Assembly: GCA_038256975.1 (NCBI GenBank) | Contig: JBBSJU010000002.1 | Location: forward strand, 65,064-129,063 | Source of the DNA: Minisyncoccia bacterium | GTDB taxonomy: Bacteria; Patescibacteriota; Minisyncoccia; Phycocordibacterales; UBA5272 | Length of the DNA stretch: 64,000 nucleotides | Direction of reading: 5' to 3' | Shown: one piece after another, positions 3,974 through 19,032 of the stretch | Layout of the letters: every line of letters begins with the position of its first letter | Numbering within the stretch: position 1 is the stretch's first letter | The notes under the pieces: generated by a model | Seen by the model: only the letters and a program-made list of their open reading frames with translations | The model's database searches: none | What the model was told of the DNA's origin: nothing | Program-made: the position numbers and the translations under genes

Positions 3974-4007
3974 GATCGGCGGCCGGATGATCATCCGGCC
4001 GCCGATC
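3974..4007. terminator. perfect 34-bp GC-rich palindrome (GATCGGCGGCCGGATGATCATCCGGCCGCCGATC) at the 3' side of the GC-rich islet gene
   Basis: Read directly in the sequence. It lies 45 nt downstream of the minus-strand stop at 4052, at the compositional boundary. Confidence 0.5.
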
Positions 4008-4051
4008 AATTGCGAGCTACTTACCATTACTGGTTTTCACCCGCAGTTGCT

Positions 4052-4624
4052 TCAGGACATGCCCTTGGTGGGGATCGGCACGATGCCGACGATGGAGCGG
4101 TTGACCTGCTTGAGCTCGCCGGAGGCCAGGCGCTGGTCGAGGTCGTTGTTCACGGCCAGGAGGAGCTTGGTCTCGTAGGCGAGGCCGCTCGTCTTGTAGT
4201 CGTCGAACGTGACCAGACCGGTCTTCAGAGCGTACGCGTCGATGTCGCCGATGCCGAGCATTGCAGCCTTGTCGGTCACACTGACCACCTCGGTCTCGGC
4301 CAGGCGTTCCGGCGTCGTGACCTTGTGCTTCAGCGCGACTGCCTTCAGCGTGTTGTACTCGGCCTGGTAGCGGACGAGGACCGTCTTGGCGGACGGACCG
4401 AAGAACGTCGCCAGATCGGTGATCGCCTTGATTTCGTCGTTCACCGCGATGGCGACGTTGCTGTCGAGCTTGCCGAAGAGGTTGATGTCCGTGTTCTGGT
4501 TGAAGGTCGTCGCAATCTGCTCGCCACTCACCGTATCGACGGCGACAGCGGCGTTGGCAGCGGTGCCTGCGACAGCCAGCGAGATGGCCATGGCAAGAAC
4601 GATCGTACGGGTGTTCGTCTTCAT
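4052..4624 (-). CDS. secreted protein of unknown function (signal peptide) encoded in the GC-rich islet
   Basis: 190 aa. N-terminus MKTNTRTIVLAMAISLAVAGTAANAAV fits a Sec signal peptide. Codon usage is high-GC, unlike the neighbouring genes. Confidence 0.55.
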   Translation of the reverse strand: MKTNTRTIVLAMAISLAVAGTAANAAVAVDTVSGEQIATTFNQNTDINLFGKLDSNVAIAVNDEIKAITDLATFFGPSAKTVLVRYQAEYNTLKAVALKHKVTTPERLAETEVVSVTDKAAMLGIGDIDAYALKTGLVTFDDYKTSGLAYETKLLLAVNNDLDQRLASGELKQVNRSIVGIVPIPTKGMS

Positions 4625-5221: not shown

Positions 5222-5743
5222 TTACAATTGTGAATCTGTATAAGCATAAGACAGTTTGTTGTATTCATCTGTATGATAAGAGCAAATACCTTTATTATTC
5301 CAAAGTAAGAATTCAGAAATACCTACATCAAGTGCGAATCTGCTACACACGGTGCAATACGGCTCTCCTGACTTTTTTATATTTCCGTCCTTATCAACTC
5401 GAGTGAAATATAATTGAGAACCCTTTAAGTCTTCAGGATTTTTCTTTATTGCATCGAGAATAGCTCTCCATTCTGCGTGCATGCAACAGGTATGATCGTA
5501 TTTTGGTTTTCCTGGAAACTCATAAGTATCCAAGCATGTGCGATTATTCTCGTTATCAAGCGGAGGAGCATTATATCCTTCACCTATAATTTCTCCGTCT
5601 TTTACGATTACCGTTCCACACTTTGCTTTGAGACAAAGAGCTTTCTCGGCGACCTTAGCCGCCTCATTCATCCACTCGATCGCCTGTTCTTCTTCTGTGT
5701 TTTGCAAATATTTCATGGCAGTTTGAATCCCTTTATGGCTCAC
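5222..5743 (-). CDS. CMP/dCMP-type zinc deaminase (dCMP deaminase-like)
   Basis: HAEWRAI (H-x-E zinc/catalytic motif) and PCTVCS (PC-x-x-C) motifs. 173 aa. Confidence 0.7.
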   Translation of the reverse strand: MSHKGIQTAMKYLQNTEEEQAIEWMNEAAKVAEKALCLKAKCGTVIVKDGEIIGEGYNAPPLDNENNRTCLDTYEFPGKPKYDHTCCMHAEWRAILDAIKKNPEDLKGSQLYFTRVDKDGNIKKSGEPYCTVCSRFALDVGISEFLLWNNKGICSYHTDEYNKLSYAYTDSQL

Positions 5744-5768: not shown

Positions 5769-5858
5769 TGGCGGAGACGGAGAGATTTGAACTCTCGAAC
5801 AAGTTGCCTCGTTGCTTGTTTTCGAAACAAGTGCCTTCAACCACTCAGCCACGTCTCC
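5769..5858 (-). tRNA. tRNA-Ser (anticodon CGA), type II, with encoded CCA
   Basis: Minus-strand sequence GGAGACGTGGCTGAGTGGTTGAAGGCACTTGTTTCGAAAACAAG...GAGAGTTCAAATCTCTCCGTCTCCGCCA. 7-bp acceptor, Ser-type D-loop, anticodon loop UUCGAAA, long variable arm, T-arm GAGAG/UUCAAAU/CUCUC. Confidence 0.8.
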
Positions 5859-5925: not shown

Positions 5926-5997
5926 GGCCCTATCGTCTAATGGTTAGGACAGCGGGTTTTCAATCCGTCAATCGGAGTTCGACTCTCCGTAGGGTCA
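5926..5997 (+). tRNA. tRNA-Glu (anticodon TTC)
   Basis: GGCCCTATCGTCTAATGGTTAGGACAGCGGGTTTTCAATCCGTCAATCGGAGTTCGACTCTCCGTAGGGTCA. Glu-like D-arm, anticodon loop UUUUCAA, T-arm CGGAG/UUCGACU/CUCCG. 72 nt, no encoded CCA. Confidence 0.8.
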
Positions 5998-6174
5998 CAT
6001 TAGTATCAATCTTCGAACATATGGTGACGGTCAAGAACGCCTTGCAAAAGCAAGGTGTTCTTGATGTGTGCCTGCCATCACGGTTACCGTGATGGTCGGT
6101 ATCCACAGACACTTGAAGAAAACTCGAATTTCTTTGCTAGGAATGTGTAAGGGTGGTAACCACACCCGCAATCA

Positions 6175-6370
6175 TATGGAGCAACAACAACCAACACCAC
6201 GGAAGGTACATCTTGAAGCAGAACGCGAACGCGCACGTAGAGCAATCCGTGAAGTCATCGACGGATTCGACTCTGTAGAAAAGACAACGTTCCCACCAAG
6301 ACGTCCTCTCGGAAGAGTCAAGAAGTCAGTACCGGCAGCTCCTCTATGGGATGCTTTGATGAAGCTCTAG
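6175..6370 (+). CDS. hypothetical small protein (start uncertain; the listed ORF begins at 6068 but its 5' part overlaps two strong hairpins)
   Basis: ORF 6068..6370. Internal ATG at 6175 (MEQQQPTPRK...). Arg/Lys-rich. No family recognised. Confidence 0.25.
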
Positions 6371-6391
6371 GTGAATTCATTCAGTGATTGA

Positions 6392-6437
6392 CCCCGAAGA
6401 AACCCGCGACGTGTGCACGGGTTTCTTCGGGGTCTTT
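6392..6437. terminator. bidirectional intrinsic terminator between convergent genes
   Basis: CCCCGAAGAAACCCG (11-nt loop) CGGGTTTCTTCGGGG, followed by TCTTT. Confidence 0.6.
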
Positions 6438-6454
6438 AATAAACACAGAAAACT

Positions 6455-7033
6455 TTAACCAACCTGTCTGACCCAATCTCTGGTAATGCTTTCAATTCGC
6501 TCTTGCTCTAATTCAGGTAAGACGTTCGTATGCATGATGATGTTTCTTGAGAGCTCAAGATCATTAAATCTAGAGTTGACCCACGCTTGATCTGGGAAAA
6601 GATCAGAGAAATCTTCCCAGTTTCCAATTATTATCTGAGCCAGATTTCCGAACATAGTATAATAAATTAAAGATGAAGATGAAGACCTTTGCGTGTGGTA
6701 TTTATTTTTTGCTTCCTTTTCTTTTAAACCACTAGCTGCCTTTTTAACTCTTTCAGGAACACATAAATCCCACCAACCTAAACCTTGCCGCTCTGCTAGC
6801 CGAGTAGATATCAGTTCTCTGGCAGAGTTTTCCAAGCAGAAAAAGGCCACATATACTGACGCCATCTTTTCAGCATCATGGACCAGAACTGGATTAAAGT
6901 CATTTTCTTCAATTCTGGCTAACGGGCTAACATCAACATGTAAACCGATTCCCGTGTTTTCCAGCTTTTTCAACTCGTCTTGTGCTAGAAAACCATCGAA
7001 GACTAACCTTTTAAGGTGGCTTATTTTTTTCAT
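6455..7033 (-). CDS. HEPN-motif protein (R-x4-H near C-terminus); putative RNase toxin/abortive-infection effector
   Basis: 192 aa. The C-terminal helix carries LSRNIIMHTNV (R-x4-H), the HEPN catalytic signature. The start codon shares a nucleotide with the stop of the upstream partner at 7033. Confidence 0.5.
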   Translation of the reverse strand: MKKISHLKRLVFDGFLAQDELKKLENTGIGLHVDVSPLARIEENDFNPVLVHDAEKMASVYVAFFCLENSARELISTRLAERQGLGWWDLCVPERVKKAASGLKEKEAKNKYHTQRSSSSSLIYYTMFGNLAQIIIGNWEDFSDLFPDQAWVNSRFNDLELSRNIIMHTNVLPELEQERIESITRDWVRQVG

Positions 7034-7644
7034 TATTCCAATAAGTTATCTCTAATGCTTTTGAAGATAGAATTATAAACACTCACGTCCGTGGTAGCGG
7101 GTAAGTGAATCTGAATGTTGTAATGAAACTCTGCAGGAAGTCCAGAAACAACGAGTGGTTTTTCTTTTCGAATCCCTTCCTCGCTTTCTTTAAAGTCAGT
7201 TTTAATTTCTTTTGGTTGAGGAGAGTCACCAAATTTAGATAATCCAACAAGTGCTTTGAATGTATTGTAATACCGTCCAACAGTCGCCTCATCCTTACCT
7301 GTAATTCGAGAAAATGCCCCCTTTATCTCAACCTCTGATGCCTTATGGATTTCTTGGTCTGTTGCAAATAAATCTTTATATAAATCAATGACTCTTTCGC
7401 CCATTACGTATTGATGTTGAGAGGCATCTTTTAGCCGATCATACGAATCAGTGGGAGTTGCAGCTTCTGTTAGAAAACCTAGTTTCTTTAAAAGAGGAAT
7501 TATGGCTCTATCATTGGAACTACCAAACCCCATTTGCTTAAGAAACTCATTTGTATACTTTATTGGCCTAGCGGCAGCTTTTGCTTTCTGAAAAAAAGCA
7601 GGAAGTCTGTTATTGGAAATAACGTATGGATATGTGTCAGTCAT
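7033..7644 (-). CDS. partner of the HEPN-motif protein (hypothetical; possible antitoxin/sensor)
   Basis: 203-aa ORF that overlaps the downstream HEPN gene by one nucleotide. No known domain recognised. Confidence 0.45.
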   Translation of the reverse strand: MTDTYPYVISNNRLPAFFQKAKAAARPIKYTNEFLKQMGFGSSNDRAIIPLLKKLGFLTEAATPTDSYDRLKDASQHQYVMGERVIDLYKDLFATDQEIHKASEVEIKGAFSRITGKDEATVGRYYNTFKALVGLSKFGDSPQPKEIKTDFKESEEGIRKEKPLVVSGLPAEFHYNIQIHLPATTDVSVYNSIFKSIRDNLLE

Positions 7645-7892
7645 GTTTTATATTTAGACTTATTATTCTATATAATAATCTTATACCTCATAGCAATATA
7701 AATCAATGAGTCAGATATTATGTCAACTATGGGGTGCTGTCCGGTATTGGATTAGTATTTTCACTATTGGAATCAAGTACTTCACGCACTGCAGTTCGAC
7801 ATCTGTCTCGATTAGGTTCACAAATACAAAAAAGAGCTACGACCACAAAGTGCAAAATGGCGATATAATCAGTATATAGCCTTAATTACGTC

Positions 7893-8618
7893 ATGAAATA
7901 CTTTAATGTAACCCAAGAAGAAATCGACTTGAGAATGTTCAATATTTTTGTTGGAATAAGTCTTGGTAACAAATTGCTAACTCCTGAACTTTGTAAACAT
8001 TATGTAGAGTGGGCACACAGAAATACAAAAGATAATTGCGTTATATTAATAGCTGATAAAATAGATGCCGTTAACTGGCAAATTTTTAGAGGGCTTTCTA
8101 GAGAAGAGTCTTTGGAGAAAGTAAAAGATAAAGGGTATGGAATTTTAGGCATGTTTGAAAAAGCAAAGAGAACTCTCGCCAAAGAAAAAGAAGATGCGAG
8201 CTACATTTCCAGGGTACATATTATATTTTGGGAAGATATAGTTAATGAAGGCTATACGGAACTCAGAAAAATATTAAATGATGAATACGAAAATAATTTA
8301 GAATTCAAAGAAAGAGTATTGTATTTTGTGAATAAATACTGCGAACTGAGAGATGTTAGTATTCTGTCAGCCGAAGATAAAGATAAGTTGGCTGGCTATA
8401 TTATTGATGAGTTACCGACGCTAATTGGTGGAATATATTGGGATGAAAAGTTGTATAACATGATATTGTATCCAACATACGTAGACAGCGGGATGAGTGA
8501 ATTTGTTTTAGATATTCGTGGTGGGAAATATTTTCATGCAGATAAATTAAAATTAAGACAAATCTGTGTTCTTGTTGAAGACTATCTAGAAAAACCTAAA
8601 ACTATTGAAAAAGAATAG
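7893..8618 (+). CDS. tRNA-dependent cyclodipeptide synthase (CDPS) homologue
   Basis: 241 aa. FNIFVGISLGNKL matches the CDPS Rossmann pocket motif (AlbC IGISAGN, YvmC VGISPFN; catalytic Ser in G-I-S). GYIIDELPTLIGG matches the catalytic Y-x-x-x-E-x-P block (AlbC NYVLAEAP, YvmC EYVIAELPFFIG). W-A...D-x-I...ID spacing resembles AlbC QWAGQRFERTDVVYVDTHID. Confidence 0.65.
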   Translation: MKYFNVTQEEIDLRMFNIFVGISLGNKLLTPELCKHYVEWAHRNTKDNCVILIADKIDAVNWQIFRGLSREESLEKVKDKGYGILGMFEKAKRTLAKEKEDASYISRVHIIFWEDIVNEGYTELRKILNDEYENNLEFKERVLYFVNKYCELRDVSILSAEDKDKLAGYIIDELPTLIGGIYWDEKLYNMILYPTYVDSGMSEFVLDIRGGKYFHADKLKLRQICVLVEDYLEKPKTIEKE

Positions 8619-8659: not shown

Positions 8660-9277
8660 TTAATCTCCGTAGGTACTTCTCACGGCTTCTTTTCCTAATT
8701 GAGTATGTAAATTAATAAGAATTTTATGGTTTGATCCGTAGGACTTTTTTATTTTTGTATTCTGGTCTTCAAAATATTTTTCAGCTTCTTGTTTGGTTTT
8801 AAAAGTTGGTTTTAAAGCAGTCCCACCATTTAGAACGTGTGTTATTTTCGGCATACACTTATCGAGTGTTTTGATAAATTTTGCTTCTTCTGTATCGAGT
8901 GACTCATATTCTTGTATTGTGTTGTGAATCCAAGGGAATACTTCTTCAAATTCTGATGTAATTCTTAGGAGGGCTTCGTGTTCCACCTTGTCTTTCTTTT
9001 TCATTCCTTCATCTGAGATAGTAAGTGTTGGTGTATCACCAGCATATGCTTCGACTAGATCATGAATTAATGCGAACTGAGCAACTTTACCAAGGTCAAG
9101 ATGTGGGGCGTACGAACTTGCAATTGCGCAAGCACAGAGCCCTAACATAATGGTGTGGTCTGTGTCTGATTCAGGAGTTATTCCATCTTCGTGGAAAGTG
9201 ATCCGATTTGTTCTGGCAAAGAAGAGTGAAAGTTGTCCGAGTTCTACAACTTTCCCGGTCATTTTTTCTATATCCAT
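8660..9277 (-). CDS. HD-domain phosphohydrolase, YfbR-like 5'-deoxynucleotidase
   Basis: ESDTDHT (H..HD metal site) and IHDLVEAYAGDTPT. The overall YfbR pattern fits at 205 aa. Confidence 0.7.
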   Translation of the reverse strand: MDIEKMTGKVVELGQLSLFFARTNRITFHEDGITPESDTDHTIMLGLCACAIASSYAPHLDLGKVAQFALIHDLVEAYAGDTPTLTISDEGMKKKDKVEHEALLRITSEFEEVFPWIHNTIQEYESLDTEEAKFIKTLDKCMPKITHVLNGGTALKPTFKTKQEAEKYFEDQNTKIKKSYGSNHKILINLHTQLGKEAVRSTYGD

Positions 9278-10142: not shown

Positions 10143-10229
10143 GGAGGATTGGATGAGTGGTTTAAATCAGCGGTTTACTAAACCGCCGACGGGTAAAACT
10201 GTCCGTGAGTTCGAATCTCACATCCTCCG
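10143..10229 (+). tRNA. type-II (Ser-like) tRNA; a canonical 7-nt anticodon loop UUACUAA gives anticodon ACU
   Basis: GGAGGATTGGATGAGTGGTTTAAATC A GCGGT TTACTAA ACCGC, a 19-nt variable arm, GTGAG TTCGAAT CTCAC, ATCCTCC G. 7-bp acceptor, Ser-type D-loop (GAGUGGUU.AA), perfect T-arm. Confidence 0.7.
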
Positions 10230-10388
10230 CTCGTGTAAAAAAGCCCTAACAAGGGCATTTTTTATTGAGCGGAGGATAGAAAGTGCTTAATGCACTTTCG
10301 TGTGAGATTCGAAAAGCTTTCCGTTATTTGTGAGGAGCTTTACTCCGAACAAATCGGAAAGGTGTACTGCTCCTGTAAGGAGAGAAAT

Positions 10389-10866: not shown

Positions 10867-11484
10867 ATGGAAAATAATACAGATGAAATAATCAATTTAA
10901 GCATTGAACAGTTTCAAGAATTTCACGAGAAATTAGGCTCAGAGAATTTCCAGCTCCAGTCTCGAATATTTGAAGATTACGGAAAAAAGAAATTGGATAT
11001 CTATTTTAAATCTATTGGGTTTACCACTGTCGTTATTGGTACAGCAGGACTTATTGCAGGATTCGGATTTACAGCAATCAGTCAAATTCAAAGCGAACTT
11101 CTCTTTTTTGTAGGAGAGGCCCTACTACTGAGTTCTATTTTCTATGGTCTATTCTGGATTCAAAACATATACCAAGGTGAATTTAGATCAATTGAGGAAG
11201 AAATAAAAAGACTCAGGGAGTTTTATGACAAAAGAAATGAAAAGTATATGGTTCTTTACAACGAGTGGATGTCGAAGAAAAGCATCACTAAAAACAATCT
11301 TAAGCAGCTTCAAGAGTTTGAAAACAAATCAATTGATTTGTTTAAGACTCCAACACAGGTTTCTGTTCCAGTCATTTACTCTCCCGTCATGTACGGTCTG
11401 ATGACGTTCGGTGCCGCGGCTCTCTTAGGTTCGTTCTTTATCTACAGTCTGTTATTCAACATTTGTCATCTCTTCTTTCTTTAA
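10867..11484 (+). CDS. hypothetical membrane protein (within att-bounded islet)
   Basis: ORF 10792..11484. ATG 10867 was chosen to avoid overlap. Two to three TM segments, with a coiled stretch between them. Confidence 0.4.
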   Translation: MENNTDEIINLSIEQFQEFHEKLGSENFQLQSRIFEDYGKKKLDIYFKSIGFTTVVIGTAGLIAGFGFTAISQIQSELLFFVGEALLLSSIFYGLFWIQNIYQGEFRSIEEEIKRLREFYDKRNEKYMVLYNEWMSKKSITKNNLKQLQEFENKSIDLFKTPTQVSVPVIYSPVMYGLMTFGAAALLGSFFIYSLLFNICHLFFL

Positions 11485-11746
11485 AGAAAGATATCCCGAC
11501 TCACATGCCTCAGCAAGACACTCCAAAAAGCGCTAGAATATCTTTATAAGGCTTGAGAGCGTGGGTACTGAACTCACATGGCCCGCCAAACCAAAATTCC
11601 ACACTTTCTTTAGGTGTGGAATTTTGTGTTTCAAGCGGTATGACGGCGAGATTCGAAAGCCGGACTGAAGCCACTATATGAGTAAAGCGAATTGTGGCGA
11701 AGGAGGCGGGGTCGCGCAAAATTTGTGAAGCAAATTTATGTGTGAC

Positions 11747-11767
11747 CGAATCTCACATCCTCCGCTC
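11747..11767 (+). repeat. direct repeat of the tRNA 3' end (CGAATCTCACATCCTCCGCTC), att-like, copy 3
   Basis: 21/21 identical to tRNA 10212-10232. It closes a roughly 1.35-kb segment that begins at copy 2. Confidence 0.6.
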
Positions 11768-11794
11768 TAAGATAAGCAAAAAGCAGGTATCTGT

Positions 11795-12382
11795 TTAAGA
11801 AAGGGGTGCAAACAACTGCTTTAATTCTGTATATTTTGCAGGATCTAGTAGTGCCTCATAGAGATTTGGAATAATTTCTTTTTCCATAAACCTTCCATCT
11901 CTACCAATTTGAAGCATCTCGTCAAAACTAACGGGTTTTAGTTCAATCTTTTCTCCGCCATCGAGTGCTTGATCTGCAACTTTTCTGCAACCTTTTGCGA
12001 TAAAGAAGTAAACAACCCAATCAATCTTTGATGTAGGATGAGCTGCCTTCCAAAGTATGTATTCTTTTGCTTCGTATCCAGTTTCTTCGAGAAACTCACG
12101 TTTTGCAGCTTCCAAGATGTCTTCATTTTCTTCTACACGACCTCCACAAGCCCCAATGAAAGGTTTCTTTCCTGGTTGCTCTTGCTCAGTTAATAATATT
12201 TTTCCGTCATCAAGTACTGGAAACACGACTACCGTATCTGGTCGCTTGAGTTTTTCAAATATTTTTGTTGTTCCATCGTACATTAACTGTTGCCATTGGT
12301 AGACATCAAAGATTTTTCCTTTGTAGATACATTCTGCATGACCTGGAATCGGTTGGTTTGAGATTGGGCGTTGGATAGTCAT
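11795..12382 (-). CDS. NUDIX hydrolase (ADP-ribose pyrophosphatase-like)
   Basis: Nudix box GGRVEENEDILEAAKREFLEETG. Confidence 0.8.
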   Translation of the reverse strand: MTIQRPISNQPIPGHAECIYKGKIFDVYQWQQLMYDGTTKIFEKLKRPDTVVVFPVLDDGKILLTEQEQPGKKPFIGACGGRVEENEDILEAAKREFLEETGYEAKEYILWKAAHPTSKIDWVVYFFIAKGCRKVADQALDGGEKIELKPVSFDEMLQIGRDGRFMEKEIIPNLYEALLDPAKYTELKQLFAPLS

Positions 12383-12424
12383 ACTACTTAATTTAATTAT
12401 CTTAGTTATGTTTGTGCTAGCTAA

Positions 12425-13123
12425 TTAAGAACTTTTCTCTATCTCCTCAATTGACTTATTCCTGTGAATTATTTCATCGTTGCGAACTGAAAGGAAAAAT
12501 TCATACTGATTTTTTGGTTCACGTCCGTACCACTTCAAAAAGTCACTATGGATAGATTTGTTTTTAAGTTCATCGCCTCGTTTTTCTAAAAAGCGACTGT
12601 ATTGCTCAAAAGCATGACTTTCGAATAAGAAGTTAAGTTCATACGAGTACCGAGGGTTAATAACGTATAAAAAATATGACGCCCAAAAGTAAAAGAAGGC
12701 AAAAAGCATTGGGATAAGGGTGTGACGGATTATTCCTGCACATTCTTCTTTCTCTGCAAGCTTGGAAATGACGACCACGTGCATCGTCTCGTTATCCTGG
12801 GCTATTTGAGCAAATTGAGCCACATCTGATAGCTGGAGCGCCTTTTTCTCATGAGAGTAAAAAAGGGTTAAAAGAGTGTAAACAGACGAAGCCCAAGAAT
12901 GATAGGGCACACGAGCAATTACTTCAACCGAGCGAAACTTTAAATATGATGGTTCTTTTCCGTACACAAAATTTCCACACCACACAAGAAATTTTCCGAG
13001 TAAGAGCGGTAGCAGACTTGGTTGGTAAGAGTCGTAACTTGTTTTGTATTCTTTGAGGAAAGAATCATCATTAAGTTTTTGGTTGAGCACTTCAAGCTCT
13101 TCGTTGTTTCGCTGTAATTCCAT
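12425..13123 (-). CDS. alternative oxidase / plastoquinol terminal oxidase-like di-iron carboxylate protein
   Basis: Four-helix di-iron ligand pattern: EVIARVP (E), NETMH (E-x-x-H), FESHAFEQYSRFL (cf. AOX LEEEAIHSYTEFL), RNDEIIHRN (cf. AOX RADEAHHRDVNH). Confidence 0.5.
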   Translation of the reverse strand: MELQRNNEELEVLNQKLNDDSFLKEYKTSYDSYQPSLLPLLLGKFLVWCGNFVYGKEPSYLKFRSVEVIARVPYHSWASSVYTLLTLFYSHEKKALQLSDVAQFAQIAQDNETMHVVVISKLAEKEECAGIIRHTLIPMLFAFFYFWASYFLYVINPRYSYELNFLFESHAFEQYSRFLEKRGDELKNKSIHSDFLKWYGREPKNQYEFFLSVRNDEIIHRNKSIEEIEKSS

Positions 13124-15469: not shown

Positions 15470-16393
15470 CTAGCTTGCGTGGAGGGCGAGATAAATGTCT
15501 TCAAGGGCGCGTACTCCATCGCCGGCGGCGATATTGTTTTGGTGATAAAGAACGTCGGTGCAGTCACCAGCGGCCCAGATGCCTAGTACAGAAGTTTTCT
15601 GTGTTCGGGGATCAATTTTAATTTGTCCACCATCTGTCATGTCCACGAGTCCTTTCACAAGGTCTGTTGCGGGAATCTGTCCAATCTCCACGAAAACACC
15701 TCCACAGTCAATGCGATGCACTTCATTCGTAACTGCATCTTTGTATGAAATACCAGTTACAAATTTCTCACCATGAACCTCTGTTGGAATTGCATTTTTA
15801 ATAATCTTAAGATTAGGGTGTGCTGAAAGTTTTTTTACTGTAATTTCATCAGCTCGAAATGTCTCACTTCGGTTGAGTAGGGTAACGCTTTTGCAGTACG
15901 CAAGAAGTTGAGCGGCAGATTCAAAGCCTGCATTTCCACCACCTACTACAACTACGTCCATTCCTGAGAAAAGGGGACCATCACACGAAGCACAATACAC
16001 AACACCTTTGTGTTCGAACGTGTCACTTCCTGGAATACCAAGCTTGCGACGCGCACTTCCTGTAGAAATGAGAATTGTTTTTGACTCCAGCACCTCACCT
16101 GATTCAAGGCTTACTGAAAATCCAGTATCATTTTTTTCTACTTTCGAAACATAAAAGCCTTCTTTAAAAGTCAGGAATTCTCCCTTGTATTCATAAGCAT
16201 GTTTCTTGAAGCTCTCAGCAAGTTCATTACCTCCTATGTGTGGGGTACCAATCCAATTTTGAATGTCAGAGGAAACAGTAGACTGTCCACCCCATTCTTT
16301 GATAACCATACATGTTCTAAGTTGTTTGCGAGCGGCATATACTGCTGCTGCAGTTCCTGCTGGGCCTCCACCAATGATAATAAGATCAAACAT
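15470..16393 (-). CDS. trxB: thioredoxin-disulfide reductase
   Basis: FAD motif IIIGGGPAGTAAAVYAAR, redox CASCDG, NADPH motif VVVVGGGNAGFE. Confidence 0.85.
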   Translation of the reverse strand: MFDLIIIGGGPAGTAAAVYAARKQLRTCMVIKEWGGQSTVSSDIQNWIGTPHIGGNELAESFKKHAYEYKGEFLTFKEGFYVSKVEKNDTGFSVSLESGEVLESKTILISTGSARRKLGIPGSDTFEHKGVVYCASCDGPLFSGMDVVVVGGGNAGFESAAQLLAYCKSVTLLNRSETFRADEITVKKLSAHPNLKIIKNAIPTEVHGEKFVTGISYKDAVTNEVHRIDCGGVFVEIGQIPATDLVKGLVDMTDGGQIKIDPRTQKTSVLGIWAAGDCTDVLYHQNNIAAGDGVRALEDIYLALHAS

Positions 16394-16444
16394 AATGGTT
16401 TGTGATTAGATCTGTTGTTAATAGGGTAATAATACCAAAAGAAA

Positions 16445-17674
16445 CTACTTTCGTCGTCGCAGGAATGCGGGAACTGCACCCCAGTCATCAGTATCGTCTT
16501 CAATAACATTAACCACATCTCCTTGCTTTTGTGTTGAATTAGAGTTTGCTGTGCTTGTTGCTTCTTTTTTTGTCTCTATTTCTTGAACAGGAAGAACATT
16601 ATGAATCTCTTTTCGTTCTAGCTCAGGATTCCTATTAATCGGCTGCTGCATTGATGACTGAATTTGAGAGGCATTCATGTTGCCACCAAAAAGTGGGGTT
16701 GTTCGCTTGTTGCCACTTATCGTAGGGAAGCCAGTTGCGATAACGGTAACCTTAACTTCATCTTTTTTAAGCGTATCGTCTTTGAATGCACCAAAGATAA
16801 TCTTTGCATCTTTGTCGACTGATTCAGTAATAATCTTGGCTGCCTCTTGAACTTCAAAGAGTGAAAGATCATCACTTCCTGAAATAGCAAAGAGTACTCC
16901 GCGAGCTCCATGAATAGAAACATCGAGTAATGGGGAATTGATGGCCGCATGAGCCGCCTCGACTGCTCTGTTTTCTCCCGCTCCTCGCCCTACACCCATG
17001 AGCGCTGTTCCTGAATCTTGCATTACTGCCCGTACGTCTGCGAAGTCAACGTTCATGATTCCAGAGTTTGAGATAAGCTCAGAAATTCCTTCCACTGCCT
17101 GCTTTAATACCTCATCACACATTGCAAAAGCATCTTTAAGGGATGTGTTTTTATCTACTGCTGCAAGAAGCTTGTCGTTCGGAATAACAATAAGAGCATC
17201 AACATTTTGCTCAAGCTCAGCTAATCCCTGCTCCGCGATCTTCATTCGTTGCGCACCTTCGAAGAAGAATGGTTTTGTTGTGACTGCAACCGTGAGCACA
17301 CCTTCGTCTTTAGAGATTTTTGCAATTGTTGGCGCCGCGCCTGTTCCTGTTCCACCACCCATACCACAAGTGATGAATACCATGTCTGCACCCTTCACTG
17401 CATTTTGGATTTCTTCTTTTGTTTCTTCTGCGGAACGTTTTCCTACATCAGGATTCATTCCTGCACCGAGACCCTTGGTGAAGTTTTTACCAATATGAAT
17501 TTTTCGTTCAGCAAGACAATTGTGGAGGTCTTGGACGTCAGTATTTACCGCGATAAATTCTACGTTTTTAACACGCGATTCAATCATGTGATTAATTGCT
17601 CCCTTTCCTGAACCCCCGACACCAATAACTTTAATTCTGGCAAAATTTTCGATTTCTGGATTGATTTTTGGCAT
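16445..17674 (-). CDS. ftsZ: cell division protein FtsZ
   Basis: GVGGSGKGAINHM, tubulin signature GGGTGTGAAP, C-terminal tail. Confidence 0.9.
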   Translation of the reverse strand: MPKINPEIENFARIKVIGVGGSGKGAINHMIESRVKNVEFIAVNTDVQDLHNCLAERKIHIGKNFTKGLGAGMNPDVGKRSAEETKEEIQNAVKGADMVFITCGMGGGTGTGAAPTIAKISKDEGVLTVAVTTKPFFFEGAQRMKIAEQGLAELEQNVDALIVIPNDKLLAAVDKNTSLKDAFAMCDEVLKQAVEGISELISNSGIMNVDFADVRAVMQDSGTALMGVGRGAGENRAVEAAHAAINSPLLDVSIHGARGVLFAISGSDDLSLFEVQEAAKIITESVDKDAKIIFGAFKDDTLKKDEVKVTVIATGFPTISGNKRTTPLFGGNMNASQIQSSMQQPINRNPELERKEIHNVLPVQEIETKKEATSTANSNSTQKQGDVVNVIEDDTDDWGAVPAFLRRRK

Positions 17675-17789
17675 AAAATATTACAATAAACGCACGTGTT
17701 TTTGAATAGCTATATAGTATCAGAAAGGTGTGTCAAGCACAAAAGGATCGGAAGGAAAGAGAAAGATGACATTTTCAATATCTGTGTTA

Positions 17790-18965
17790 TTACGGTAGGA
17801 ACTGTTTGAAGAATTGAATAATTGCTCGGAAAGTCTGAGAGAGTGTTTCCGTAGCGCTTCCAACACGTCCCACCGAAGCGTCACTTTGGAGGAGTGCAAG
17901 CCCACAAGCAACTCCAAGATTTGGATCTTTAATCTTGCCTTTTGTTATGGTTGTAAGCTCTTGAGAGTCTGTGGTTACAGGAATGCGTAAGATATCTTTA
18001 GCAATTTCAAGAATGAGTTTCTGATTAGAGCCACCACCGAGGAGAATGGCACCTGCAGGAAGTAATCCACTACGGTGGATTTTTCGTAACTGCGTATCAA
18101 GGAGTTCAAAAATATCAGTGGTGCGCGCACGGACAATCTCATCTATCTTTCGTTTTGAAACAATGCCTTCGTAGGAACCACGTTTCATTTTTTCTGCGTC
18201 TTCAATAGAAACTTTAAGTCCAAGAGCAATATCGTTGGTGATATCGTTACTTCCTATTTGAACGGTGTGTACGAGAAGGGGAACAGAGTGTTCGTATACT
18301 ACCATGGTCGTTGTCTCTGCGCCGATATCAATAACTGCTGAGCCAGTGGTGCGTTCCTTTTTTGAAAGTACACATAAGCTTGTTGCAATAGGACTTGCAA
18401 TTGTATCGTCCACATCAACACCGAGTGATTCAAAGATTGCGTGGAGCTCCTCTATTTGCTGCTCAGGATAGATAACGAAGAGTGTTTTTACTTCAAGTTT
18501 TCCACCGATGAGACCGAGTACTTTTGCAAGTACGTCTTTATTATCGAGCTTCCATTTTTGTGGAATTACGTGAAGAATCTTTTGATTTTTTTGCTCACCC
18601 AGCGTGTCTTCTGAATTTTGTATAGCACGGTTTGTATCAAGGGTAGTAACTTGGCTATCAGCACGTGTAATTACTGCGTGTCCTGTGCCTTGAATTGAAG
18701 TAAGTCCAAGGCCGTGAACACCAACCACAACTCGAGTAATGGGGTATCCTGACTGTTTGCTTGCAAGAGAAAGCGCGCGCTCTATTGAACGGGTAACATC
18801 AGGAGTTGAATCTATATATCCGCGACGCATCCCATTGTTTTCAACTGTTATGACCGCACGAATGCTTGGATATGTGTCATGTTCGGCACGCTCACCAACG
18901 ACCACTTTTATGTAAGAGGTGCCGATATCAATTCCGGTCACTATAGTCGTATGGGTTCGTGGCAT
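17790..18965 (-). CDS. ftsA: cell division protein FtsA
   Basis: Actin-like ATPase fold (VTGIDIGTSYIKVVVGE..., ILLGGGSNQ). The ATG at 18965 is preferred over the TTG at 18974. Confidence 0.85.
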   Translation of the reverse strand: MPRTHTTIVTGIDIGTSYIKVVVGERAEHDTYPSIRAVITVENNGMRRGYIDSTPDVTRSIERALSLASKQSGYPITRVVVGVHGLGLTSIQGTGHAVITRADSQVTTLDTNRAIQNSEDTLGEQKNQKILHVIPQKWKLDNKDVLAKVLGLIGGKLEVKTLFVIYPEQQIEELHAIFESLGVDVDDTIASPIATSLCVLSKKERTTGSAVIDIGAETTTMVVYEHSVPLLVHTVQIGSNDITNDIALGLKVSIEDAEKMKRGSYEGIVSKRKIDEIVRARTTDIFELLDTQLRKIHRSGLLPAGAILLGGGSNQKLILEIAKDILRIPVTTDSQELTTITKGKIKDPNLGVACGLALLQSDASVGRVGSATETLSQTFRAIIQFFKQFLP

Positions 18966-19032
18966 GTGGAGCAAATTGTTTTAAGTACTTTTGTTCTTGT
19001 TTCTCCATTGTACTCCCTTGTTAGTATCCTTT

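Follow-up and report, generated by a model that had tools for sequence, protein, structure and literature searches.

A copy of the predicted phage defence cassette PDC-M34, pairing a DUF5343 protein with a Swt1-like HEPN protein, in a Minisyncoccia bacterium contig

The window analysed here is a stretch of 64,000 nucleotides from a Minisyncoccia bacterium (assembly GCA_038256975.1, contig JBBSJU010000002.1, positions 65,064 to 129,063 of the forward strand). Near its beginning lie two adjacent minus-strand genes that a first-pass annotation, made from the letters alone, had described as a two-gene module with a HEPN effector carrying an R-x4-H motif, and had proposed as a candidate abortive infection (Abi) or toxin-antitoxin (TA) system. 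That annotation had read two open reading frames (ORFs) of 203 and 192 aa overlapping by one nucleotide at 7033, and the sequence bears this out. The upstream gene is called A and the downstream gene B in what follows; in window coordinates, the locus is laid out as follows:

7033..7644, minus strand: gene A, DUF5343 protein (PADLOC PDC-M34A), 203 aa, ATG start
6455..7033, minus strand: gene B, Swt1-like HEPN protein (PADLOC PDC-M34B), predicted RNase effector, 192 aa, ATG start
7031..7035, minus strand: TAATG junction, where the A stop and the B start share the single base 7033 (read from the sequence)

The TAATG overlap is consistent with translational coupling of the two genes. To identify the proteins, profile searches of the kind proposed in the first-pass annotation were run, and both gave an assignment. 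Gene A matched Pfam PF17278 (DUF5343) over aa 6-138 with an E of 2.7e-39, and the earlier statement that the upstream partner had no recognisable domain was therefore wrong. Gene B matched PF18731 (HEPN_Swt1) over aa 63-192, profile positions 2-115 of 115, with an E of 3e-10 and a score of 40.8 bits, above the gathering score of 27.5. The PADLOC models matched over practically their whole length, PDLC04589 (PDC-M34A) covering aa 1-201 of A on profile positions 1-207 of 208 (E 1.8e-63) and PDLC04592 (PDC-M34B) covering aa 1-192 of B on positions 1-191 of 192 (E 6.4e-65). With both models matched by genes adjacent on the same strand, the window locus is, by its profile matches, a copy of the two-gene cassette PADLOC PDC-M34. 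The HEPN_Swt1 match and the full-length PDC-M34A and PDC-M34B matches together support the first description of the pair as a module with a HEPN effector and a candidate Abi or TA system.

Payne et al. (10.1101/2024.01.29.577857) proposed PDC-M34 in their "guilt-by-embedding" screen, in which cassettes nested in type I restriction-modification (RM), BREX or DISARM loci were curated to yield 145 phage defence candidates. Supplementary table 8 of that work lists CAS_00130 (FAM_01148>>FAM_01657, two families, count 97) with the remark "Assign as candidate PDC-M34" (10.1101/2024.01.29.577857). Eight PADLOC candidates were assayed in a cold-seep study, and PDC-M34 was not among them (10.1101/2024.09.26.614923). 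The system is already catalogued, its standing as a defence system is a prediction, and the window copy adds another example whose function we infer. That copy has the gene order, adjacency and architecture of PDC-M34, but it differs from the setting of the screen in not being embedded in an RM, BREX or DISARM locus and in lying within a tRNA-flanked tract among metabolic genes.

Judged by its sequence, gene B carries an intact HEPN catalytic signature. The LSRNIIMH segment pointed out earlier is present at residues 161-168 and contains R163-N164-I-I-M-H168, the sole R-x4-6-H in the protein. R163, N164 and H168 were invariant in all 57 paired homologues of B, and E107 in 56 of them; E68, N69, R72, R116, R155, D158 and E160 were also invariant in the 57 sequences. 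A single R-x4-H could arise by chance in 192 aa, but this invariance and the PF18731 score above the gathering score point to more than chance. In the AlphaFold2 (AF2) model, which had a predicted local distance difference test score (pLDDT) of 84, the protein was all-alpha, with helices at residues 2-26, 48-83, 94-109, 149-169 and 174-190. A variable loop followed the first helix, the predicted HEPN core spanned residues 48-190, and a partly helical insert occupied residues 110-148. The motif had been claimed to lie in the last predicted helix; this was not so, as R163 to H168 stand at the end of the penultimate one (149-169), before the last (174-190). E107 lies in helix 94-109. Where the survey of Anantharaman et al. 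2013 sets out the HEPN domain, it gives a four-helix up-down core and notes that helices 2 and 3 are often separated by an insert (PMC3710099). The predicted topology of B agrees with that published account, with its insert between helices 2 and 3 and its motif in the canonical position (PMC3710099). Instead of falling outside an all-alpha HEPN fold, which would have spoken against the HEPN assignment, the R-x4-H segment sits, in the model, within an all-alpha protein. Structure comparison of B gave no significant match to a solved HEPN.

For gene A, the AF2 model and the alignment suggested three segments:

Residues 1-140: winged-helix-like and helical domain
Residues 141-170: variable, disordered linker
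Residues 171-203: conserved tail, FHYNIQIHLPATTDVSVYNSIFKSIRDNLLE

The model (pLDDT 80) has helices at residues 11-23, 32-37 and 44-55, a short beta hairpin at 58/64, a helical bundle over residues 66-134 and a helix at 187-201, and residues 145-167 have a pLDDT below 50. The three N-terminal helices and the hairpin have, in this model, the look of a winged helix-turn-helix (wHTH). The top Foldseek matches of A, all non-significant, were wHTH regulators (GntR/FCD, DtxR-type, NsrR) and the winged-helix region of DEAH helicases, and we treat these model-based likenesses as a lead only; neither Pfam nor the structure searches gave a significant match of A to a known family of DNA-binding proteins.

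Conservation was distributed very unevenly along A. Over the 57 sequences, the mean majority-residue fraction was 0.66 and 0.64 in the N-terminal domain, 0.22 in the linker and 0.83 in the tail. The last 33 residues, with the motif FHYNIQIHLPATTDxSVYNAIFKSL, are the best-conserved segment of the protein, and the linker is the least conserved and varies in length (P0386 is an example). In FHYNIQIHL, hydrophobic residues take turns with polar ones, as they would in an exposed beta strand, and this stretch is unpaired in the monomer model. A profile of A retrieved 2,410 clusters at 50% identity with E <= 1e-3 and 193 with E <= 1e-30; the best 150 of the 2,410 were almost all of ~205 aa, tail included. 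One subfamily of DUF5343 (P0334, P0390) keeps the N-terminal domain and has a different conserved C-terminus, HPLIEGLLRELPP...WLEIAE.AFRLMY, which replaces the FHYNIQIHLP tail. At the only alternative-tail locus that was read (L097, 456-1145, encoding P0390), no HEPN gene lay downstream, and this single case fits a role of the tail as the HEPN-specific part of DUF5343.

The gene neighborhood of the family was explored in 86 B-anchored loci; a search of genome contigs with one protein gave three loci, and a metagenome scan compensated for this. B had 391 detectable homologues, nearly all of ~192 aa and at 56-69% identity, the named ones coming from Nitrospinae, Ignavibacteriae, Alteromonas, Gracilibacter, Pirellulales and Pyrinomonadaceae. 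A had 544 homologues of ~200 aa at 50-62% identity, and those named included Candidatus Thorarchaeota, Candidatus Zambryskibacteria, Mucilaginibacter and Nitrospinae. The first-pass annotation had called for a co-occurrence analysis and had held that the pair should be conserved as neighbours in related genomes. It is: a homologue of A was found directly upstream, on the same strand, in 71 of the 72 B-anchored loci with room upstream, and a HEPN_Swt1 gene directly downstream in five out of five A-anchored look-ups. The distance from the A stop to the B start ranged from -8 to +15 nt in all 65 non-redundant loci, with the genes overlapping in 21 of these. The pairwise identities of A and B were correlated (Pearson r = 0.73, 57 pairs), which is what co-inheritance as a unit predicts. 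On these sequence comparisons, the A-B order is fixed, and the pair is spaced for coupling and moves between genomes as a unit. The cassette family was found in bacteria and in at least one archaeal metagenome-assembled genome (MAG), and its carriers include reduced genomes of the candidate phyla radiation (CPR) type.

No conserved third gene emerged from Pfam and PADLOC scans of 109 flanking proteins (the two nearest ORFs on each side, 31 loci). These proteins represented 102 different Pfam families, none of them seen more than four times; integrases were seen four times, and DNA methylases, ResIII, ParE and Septu PtuA/PtuB twice each. The 437-aa ORFs that follow B in L012 and L022 were considered as a shared third gene and rejected, being mutually unrelated.

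Across the loci, the cassette was observed in three settings: mobile or defence islands, solitary insertions among housekeeping genes, and the tRNA-flanked tract of the window. In a Zambryskibacteria MAG (L087), GmrSD+HNH, EcoRI methylase and T5orf172 genes lay upstream of the pair and a large serine recombinase (11202-12662) directly downstream, and the same kind of large serine recombinase (11336-12889) was located just downstream of the pair in L090. Both recombinases have Resolvase, Recombinase and Zn_ribbon_recom domains and belong to two unrelated genomes, and their presence beside the pair suggests, as far as gene content can indicate, that the cassette sometimes rides on integrative elements. 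Copies of the insertion sequences (IS) IS21 and IS110 bracket the cassette in L004, where DUF4062 and patatin genes are also present, and HsdM and HsdS are directly upstream of it in L052. Solitary cassettes between housekeeping genes were found in L089, L092, L093 and L095; L092 belongs to Mucilaginibacter sp. RB4R14, a cultured carrier. The window copy shows that the cassette also occurs by itself, with no other recognisable defence genes near it, in a genome context that is small, AT-rich and CPR-like. A collection of 72,556 plasmids contained one partial match each for A and B, and phage genomes, viral contigs and PHROGs contained no match to either protein.

A variant of the pair was uncovered in a Chitinophagaceae MAG (L003, 4958-6540). 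Its B-like HEPN protein is distant (263 aa, 37% identity, PDC-M34B E 4.5e-44) and has an 80-aa N-terminal extension; upstream, with a one-base overlap, an unrelated 263-aa double-zinc-ribbon protein takes the place of DUF5343. An AbiLi-like AAA_21 ATPase and a trypsin-like protease flank this pair, which may, from its gene content, be an uncatalogued sister system.

The promoter of the window pair presumably lies in the intergenic sequence that separates A from the divergent CDPS-like gene:

7645..7892, minus strand: AT-rich region upstream of A, lying between this gene and the divergent CDPS-like gene, with a TTGACA present

The promoter scan made no call of a consensus sigma-70 site on the minus strand in 7645..7892. 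An upstream block, TTTACtTTTTGACA, was found in a subgroup of close relatives only, and the closest relatives (L007, L016, L089, L091 and L088) have the block TTTAC(T/A)TTTTGACA...AAAG upstream of A; the window has the TTGACA, not the whole block. The TTTAC(T/A) block may be a promoter or operator travelling with the cassette. Two RNA-based forms of control were considered and rejected. A type III (ToxIN-like) RNA antitoxin was set aside as the region 6300-7950 holds no tandem repeat family, only scattered two-copy matches, and an RNA antitoxin or riboswitch as there was no Rfam match except to tRNAs.

When compared with characterized systems, the pair resembles modules in which a HEPN RNase is controlled by a protein partner, and it differs from each of them. 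The HEPN-MNT type II/VII TA systems (Shewanella SO_3166/SO_3165; Aphanizomenon HEPN-MNT) likewise consist of a small R-x4-6-H HEPN RNase and a co-transcribed controlling partner in a two-gene mobile cassette. The window partner, however, is a DUF5343 protein that matched no nucleotidyltransferase family in Pfam at E <= 1; neutralisation of the AMPylation type is therefore not expected, and the pair is not HEPN-MNT. The window HEPN falls in the Swt1/Abi2 branch, within its catalytically active bacterial part, and not in the MNT-associated one. The Abi2/AbiD/AbiF and Swt1-like HEPN domains are of the same HEPN clade as B. Anantharaman et al. 2013 describe bacterial Swt1/Abi2 HEPN domains that are catalytically intact and lie within RM operons, and they predict defensive RNase roles for them; a term search of their text retrieved no passage naming a DUF5343 partner (PMC3710099). 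AbiD and AbiF are single, larger proteins, unlike the two-gene pair of the window, and B had no Pfam Abi_2 match at E <= 1 and is therefore not an Abi2/AbiD/AbiF protein; the L003 variant had a weak Abi_2 match (E 0.009).

RnlA-RnlB and LsoA-LsoB combine a HEPN-containing RNase toxin with a labile protein antitoxin and are activated on phage infection. Their logic serves, by analogy, as the working model proposed for the window pair, but the sequences and partner families are unrelated, rnlAB has the toxin first (the reverse order), and RnlA is multi-domain. As to the type II TA layout in general, the small coupled bicistronic operon is present (TAATG; -8 to +15 nt in 65 loci), and the modelled winged-helix-like N-terminus of A, its linker of pLDDT below 50 and its conserved tail would correspond to the build of a type II antitoxin, with no significant DNA-binding family match.

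We tentatively favor, at somewhat less than an even chance, a toxin-antitoxin-like abortive infection mechanism in which A restrains the HEPN RNase B and phage infection releases it. B would be a metal-independent endoribonuclease working as a dimer, by analogy with HEPN RNases generally, and A would keep it inactive in the uninfected cell. A, which in the model is built like a type II antitoxin or regulator with a winged-helix-like nucleic-acid-binding domain, a disordered linker and a strand-plus-helix tail, would dock on the HEPN protein through that C-terminal tail. On phage infection, A would be lost, titrated or conformationally changed, and the freed B would cleave cellular or phage RNA (tRNA, mRNA or rRNA), so that growth and phage production stop. 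The mobile and defence neighbours present in some loci (Septu, ParE, integrases, RM genes, recombinases and IS elements) count for a role in defence.

Several points weigh against this model. A full-text literature search found no experiment on PDC-M34 or its DUF5343/Swt1-like HEPN families; that B is an RNase and toxic, that A neutralises it and that the pair protects against phage are predictions. Many copies, that of the window included, are found among housekeeping genes without other defence genes nearby. No operator motif was common to the 61 regions upstream of A, in which only A/T-rich k-mers exceeded the shuffled controls, and the link between the tail and HEPN hangs on the one counter-example locus, L097. 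Finally, A is as conserved as B (mean identity ~52% and ~60%), and conservation that high is unusual for labile type II antitoxins.

This last point would be better explained if A were a sensor of phage nucleic acid or protein that switches on a latent HEPN RNase through its tethered tail, B alone being harmless. We consider such a sensor-activator arrangement unlikely, but it is the main rival of the favored model. A is larger than B and equally strongly conserved across phyla, which fits a sensor more readily than an expendable antitoxin, there is no conserved autoregulatory operator, and the swap of the partner for a zinc-ribbon protein in the defence island of L003 has the pattern of an exchangeable sensor module. 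That swap was seen in one locus only, however, the inactivity of B on its own is an assumption of the model, and a regulator-first coupled order with a DNA-binding domain and a disordered C-terminus is the classic antitoxin layout. The same layout, a small coupled two-gene cassette, would also be expected of a plain type II TA addiction or stress module that stabilises its carrier element or island, or induces dormancy under stress, without a role dedicated to phage defence; in several loci the pair adjoins serine recombinases and IS elements, ParE-type TA genes are among its neighbours, and its PDC status is a prediction. Addiction modules are usually common on plasmids and phages, though, and this family is near-absent from the 72,556 plasmids and absent from the phage and viral collections. 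As it was, moreover, first picked up embedded in RM, BREX or DISARM loci and has many copies that are solitary chromosomal insertions, we regard a pure addiction role as improbable.

Very improbable, in our view, is a vertically inherited housekeeping pair in which B is an RNA-processing or RNA-binding factor and A its transcription or RNA-binding partner. The identity of ~60% across phyla is high for a conflict system and the flanks are often housekeeping genes. A comparison with locus L005 (GCA_964350985.1) also goes in this direction: a TrxR-FtsZ-FtsA block, at 58-61% identity, lies within ~10 kb of the pair both in the window (15470-18974) and in L005, and the identities of the pair between the two (57% and 64%) are like those of FtsZ (58%) and TrxR (61%). 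Against this, the pair is oriented differently with respect to FtsZ in the window and in L005, the flanking genes vary by locus, recombinases, IS elements and RM genes recur nearby, and the similar identities across Thorarchaeota, Zambryskibacteria, Bacteroidota, Nitrospinae, Planctomycetota and Alteromonas fit horizontal transfer.

A more specific proposal concerns DUF5343 itself, which might be a tethered-peptide regulator. Its winged-helix sensor and flexible linker would carry a near-invariant 33-residue tail that plugs into or bridges the HEPN dimer, gating the RNase on a phage nucleic-acid cue, and other tails would serve non-HEPN outputs. We put this forward as a speculative and rather unlikely idea; if true, it would represent a modular sensor-tether-effector logic without a described precedent among HEPN defence systems. 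Should PDC-M34 prove to function in defence or as a toxin module, by whichever mechanism, the HEPN RNase systems would gain a partner family that has so far been uncharacterised, and the very clean architecture of the cassette lends itself to sharp experiments.

The remaining features of the tract around the pair are the following:

5769-5858, minus strand: tRNA-Ser
5926-5998, plus strand: tRNA-Glu
6390-6434: inverted repeat, perfect over 17 bp, with a loop of 11 nt; it separates the 3' end of B from ORF 6068-6370(+), which is convergent with B
7893-8618, plus strand: CDPS-like ORF, 241 aa (PF16715, E 2e-5, 24.9 bits, below the gathering score of 27)
10143-10230, plus strand: tRNA-Ser

The tRNA genes are found where a tRNA-flanked tract had been described, and the ORF named earlier as a neighbouring CDPS gene is present, with a weak PF16715 match. 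Other neighbours identified with Pfam are an HD_3 protein, TspO and TfoX_N. In the ~19 kb of the window whose ORFs were scanned, no recombinase or other defence gene was found. Nucleotide-metabolism enzymes surround the pair at 5222-5743(-), 8660-9277(-) and 11795-12382(-), namely a dCMP/cytidine deaminase-like protein, HD_3 (a YfbR-like 5'-deoxynucleotidase) and a NUDIX hydrolase. Some nucleotide-metabolism enzymes act in phage defence through nucleotide depletion.

The only other locus with a CDPS gene nearby was L005, where the gene (12239-12925(-), 32% identity to the window CDPS-like ORF) lies ~3.6 kb from the PDC-M34 pair of that genome. A functional CDPS-HEPN link was rejected because only L005 shares the association; L005 looks like a relative, and the common CDPS gene therefore probably reflects shared ancestry of a rearranged neighbourhood.

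The inverted repeat on the 3' side of B had been called a bidirectional terminator. The hairpin is real, with an RNA fold dG of -39.8 kcal/mol and a z of -6.45, and it is probably a transcript-end hairpin. The earlier label was overstated, since the minus-strand side lacks a T/U run, the plus side has no more than TTTAAT, and the hairpin was not called by the terminator scan. The ORF 6068-6370(+) beyond it, 100 aa and convergent with the HEPN gene, has no Pfam match and a GC content above that of its surroundings, and is a possible gene.

Further upstream in the window, the GC content spikes to 61% at 4001-4500, compared with ~38-45% around it. The spike covers ORF 4052-4624(-), whose 190-aa product has no Pfam match and starts with a sequence resembling a signal peptide, MKTNTRTIVLAMAISLAVAGTAANA. 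Overlapping long ORFs occur on both strands of 4001-4624, as is typical of GC-rich inserts, and this GC-rich segment may be foreign DNA.

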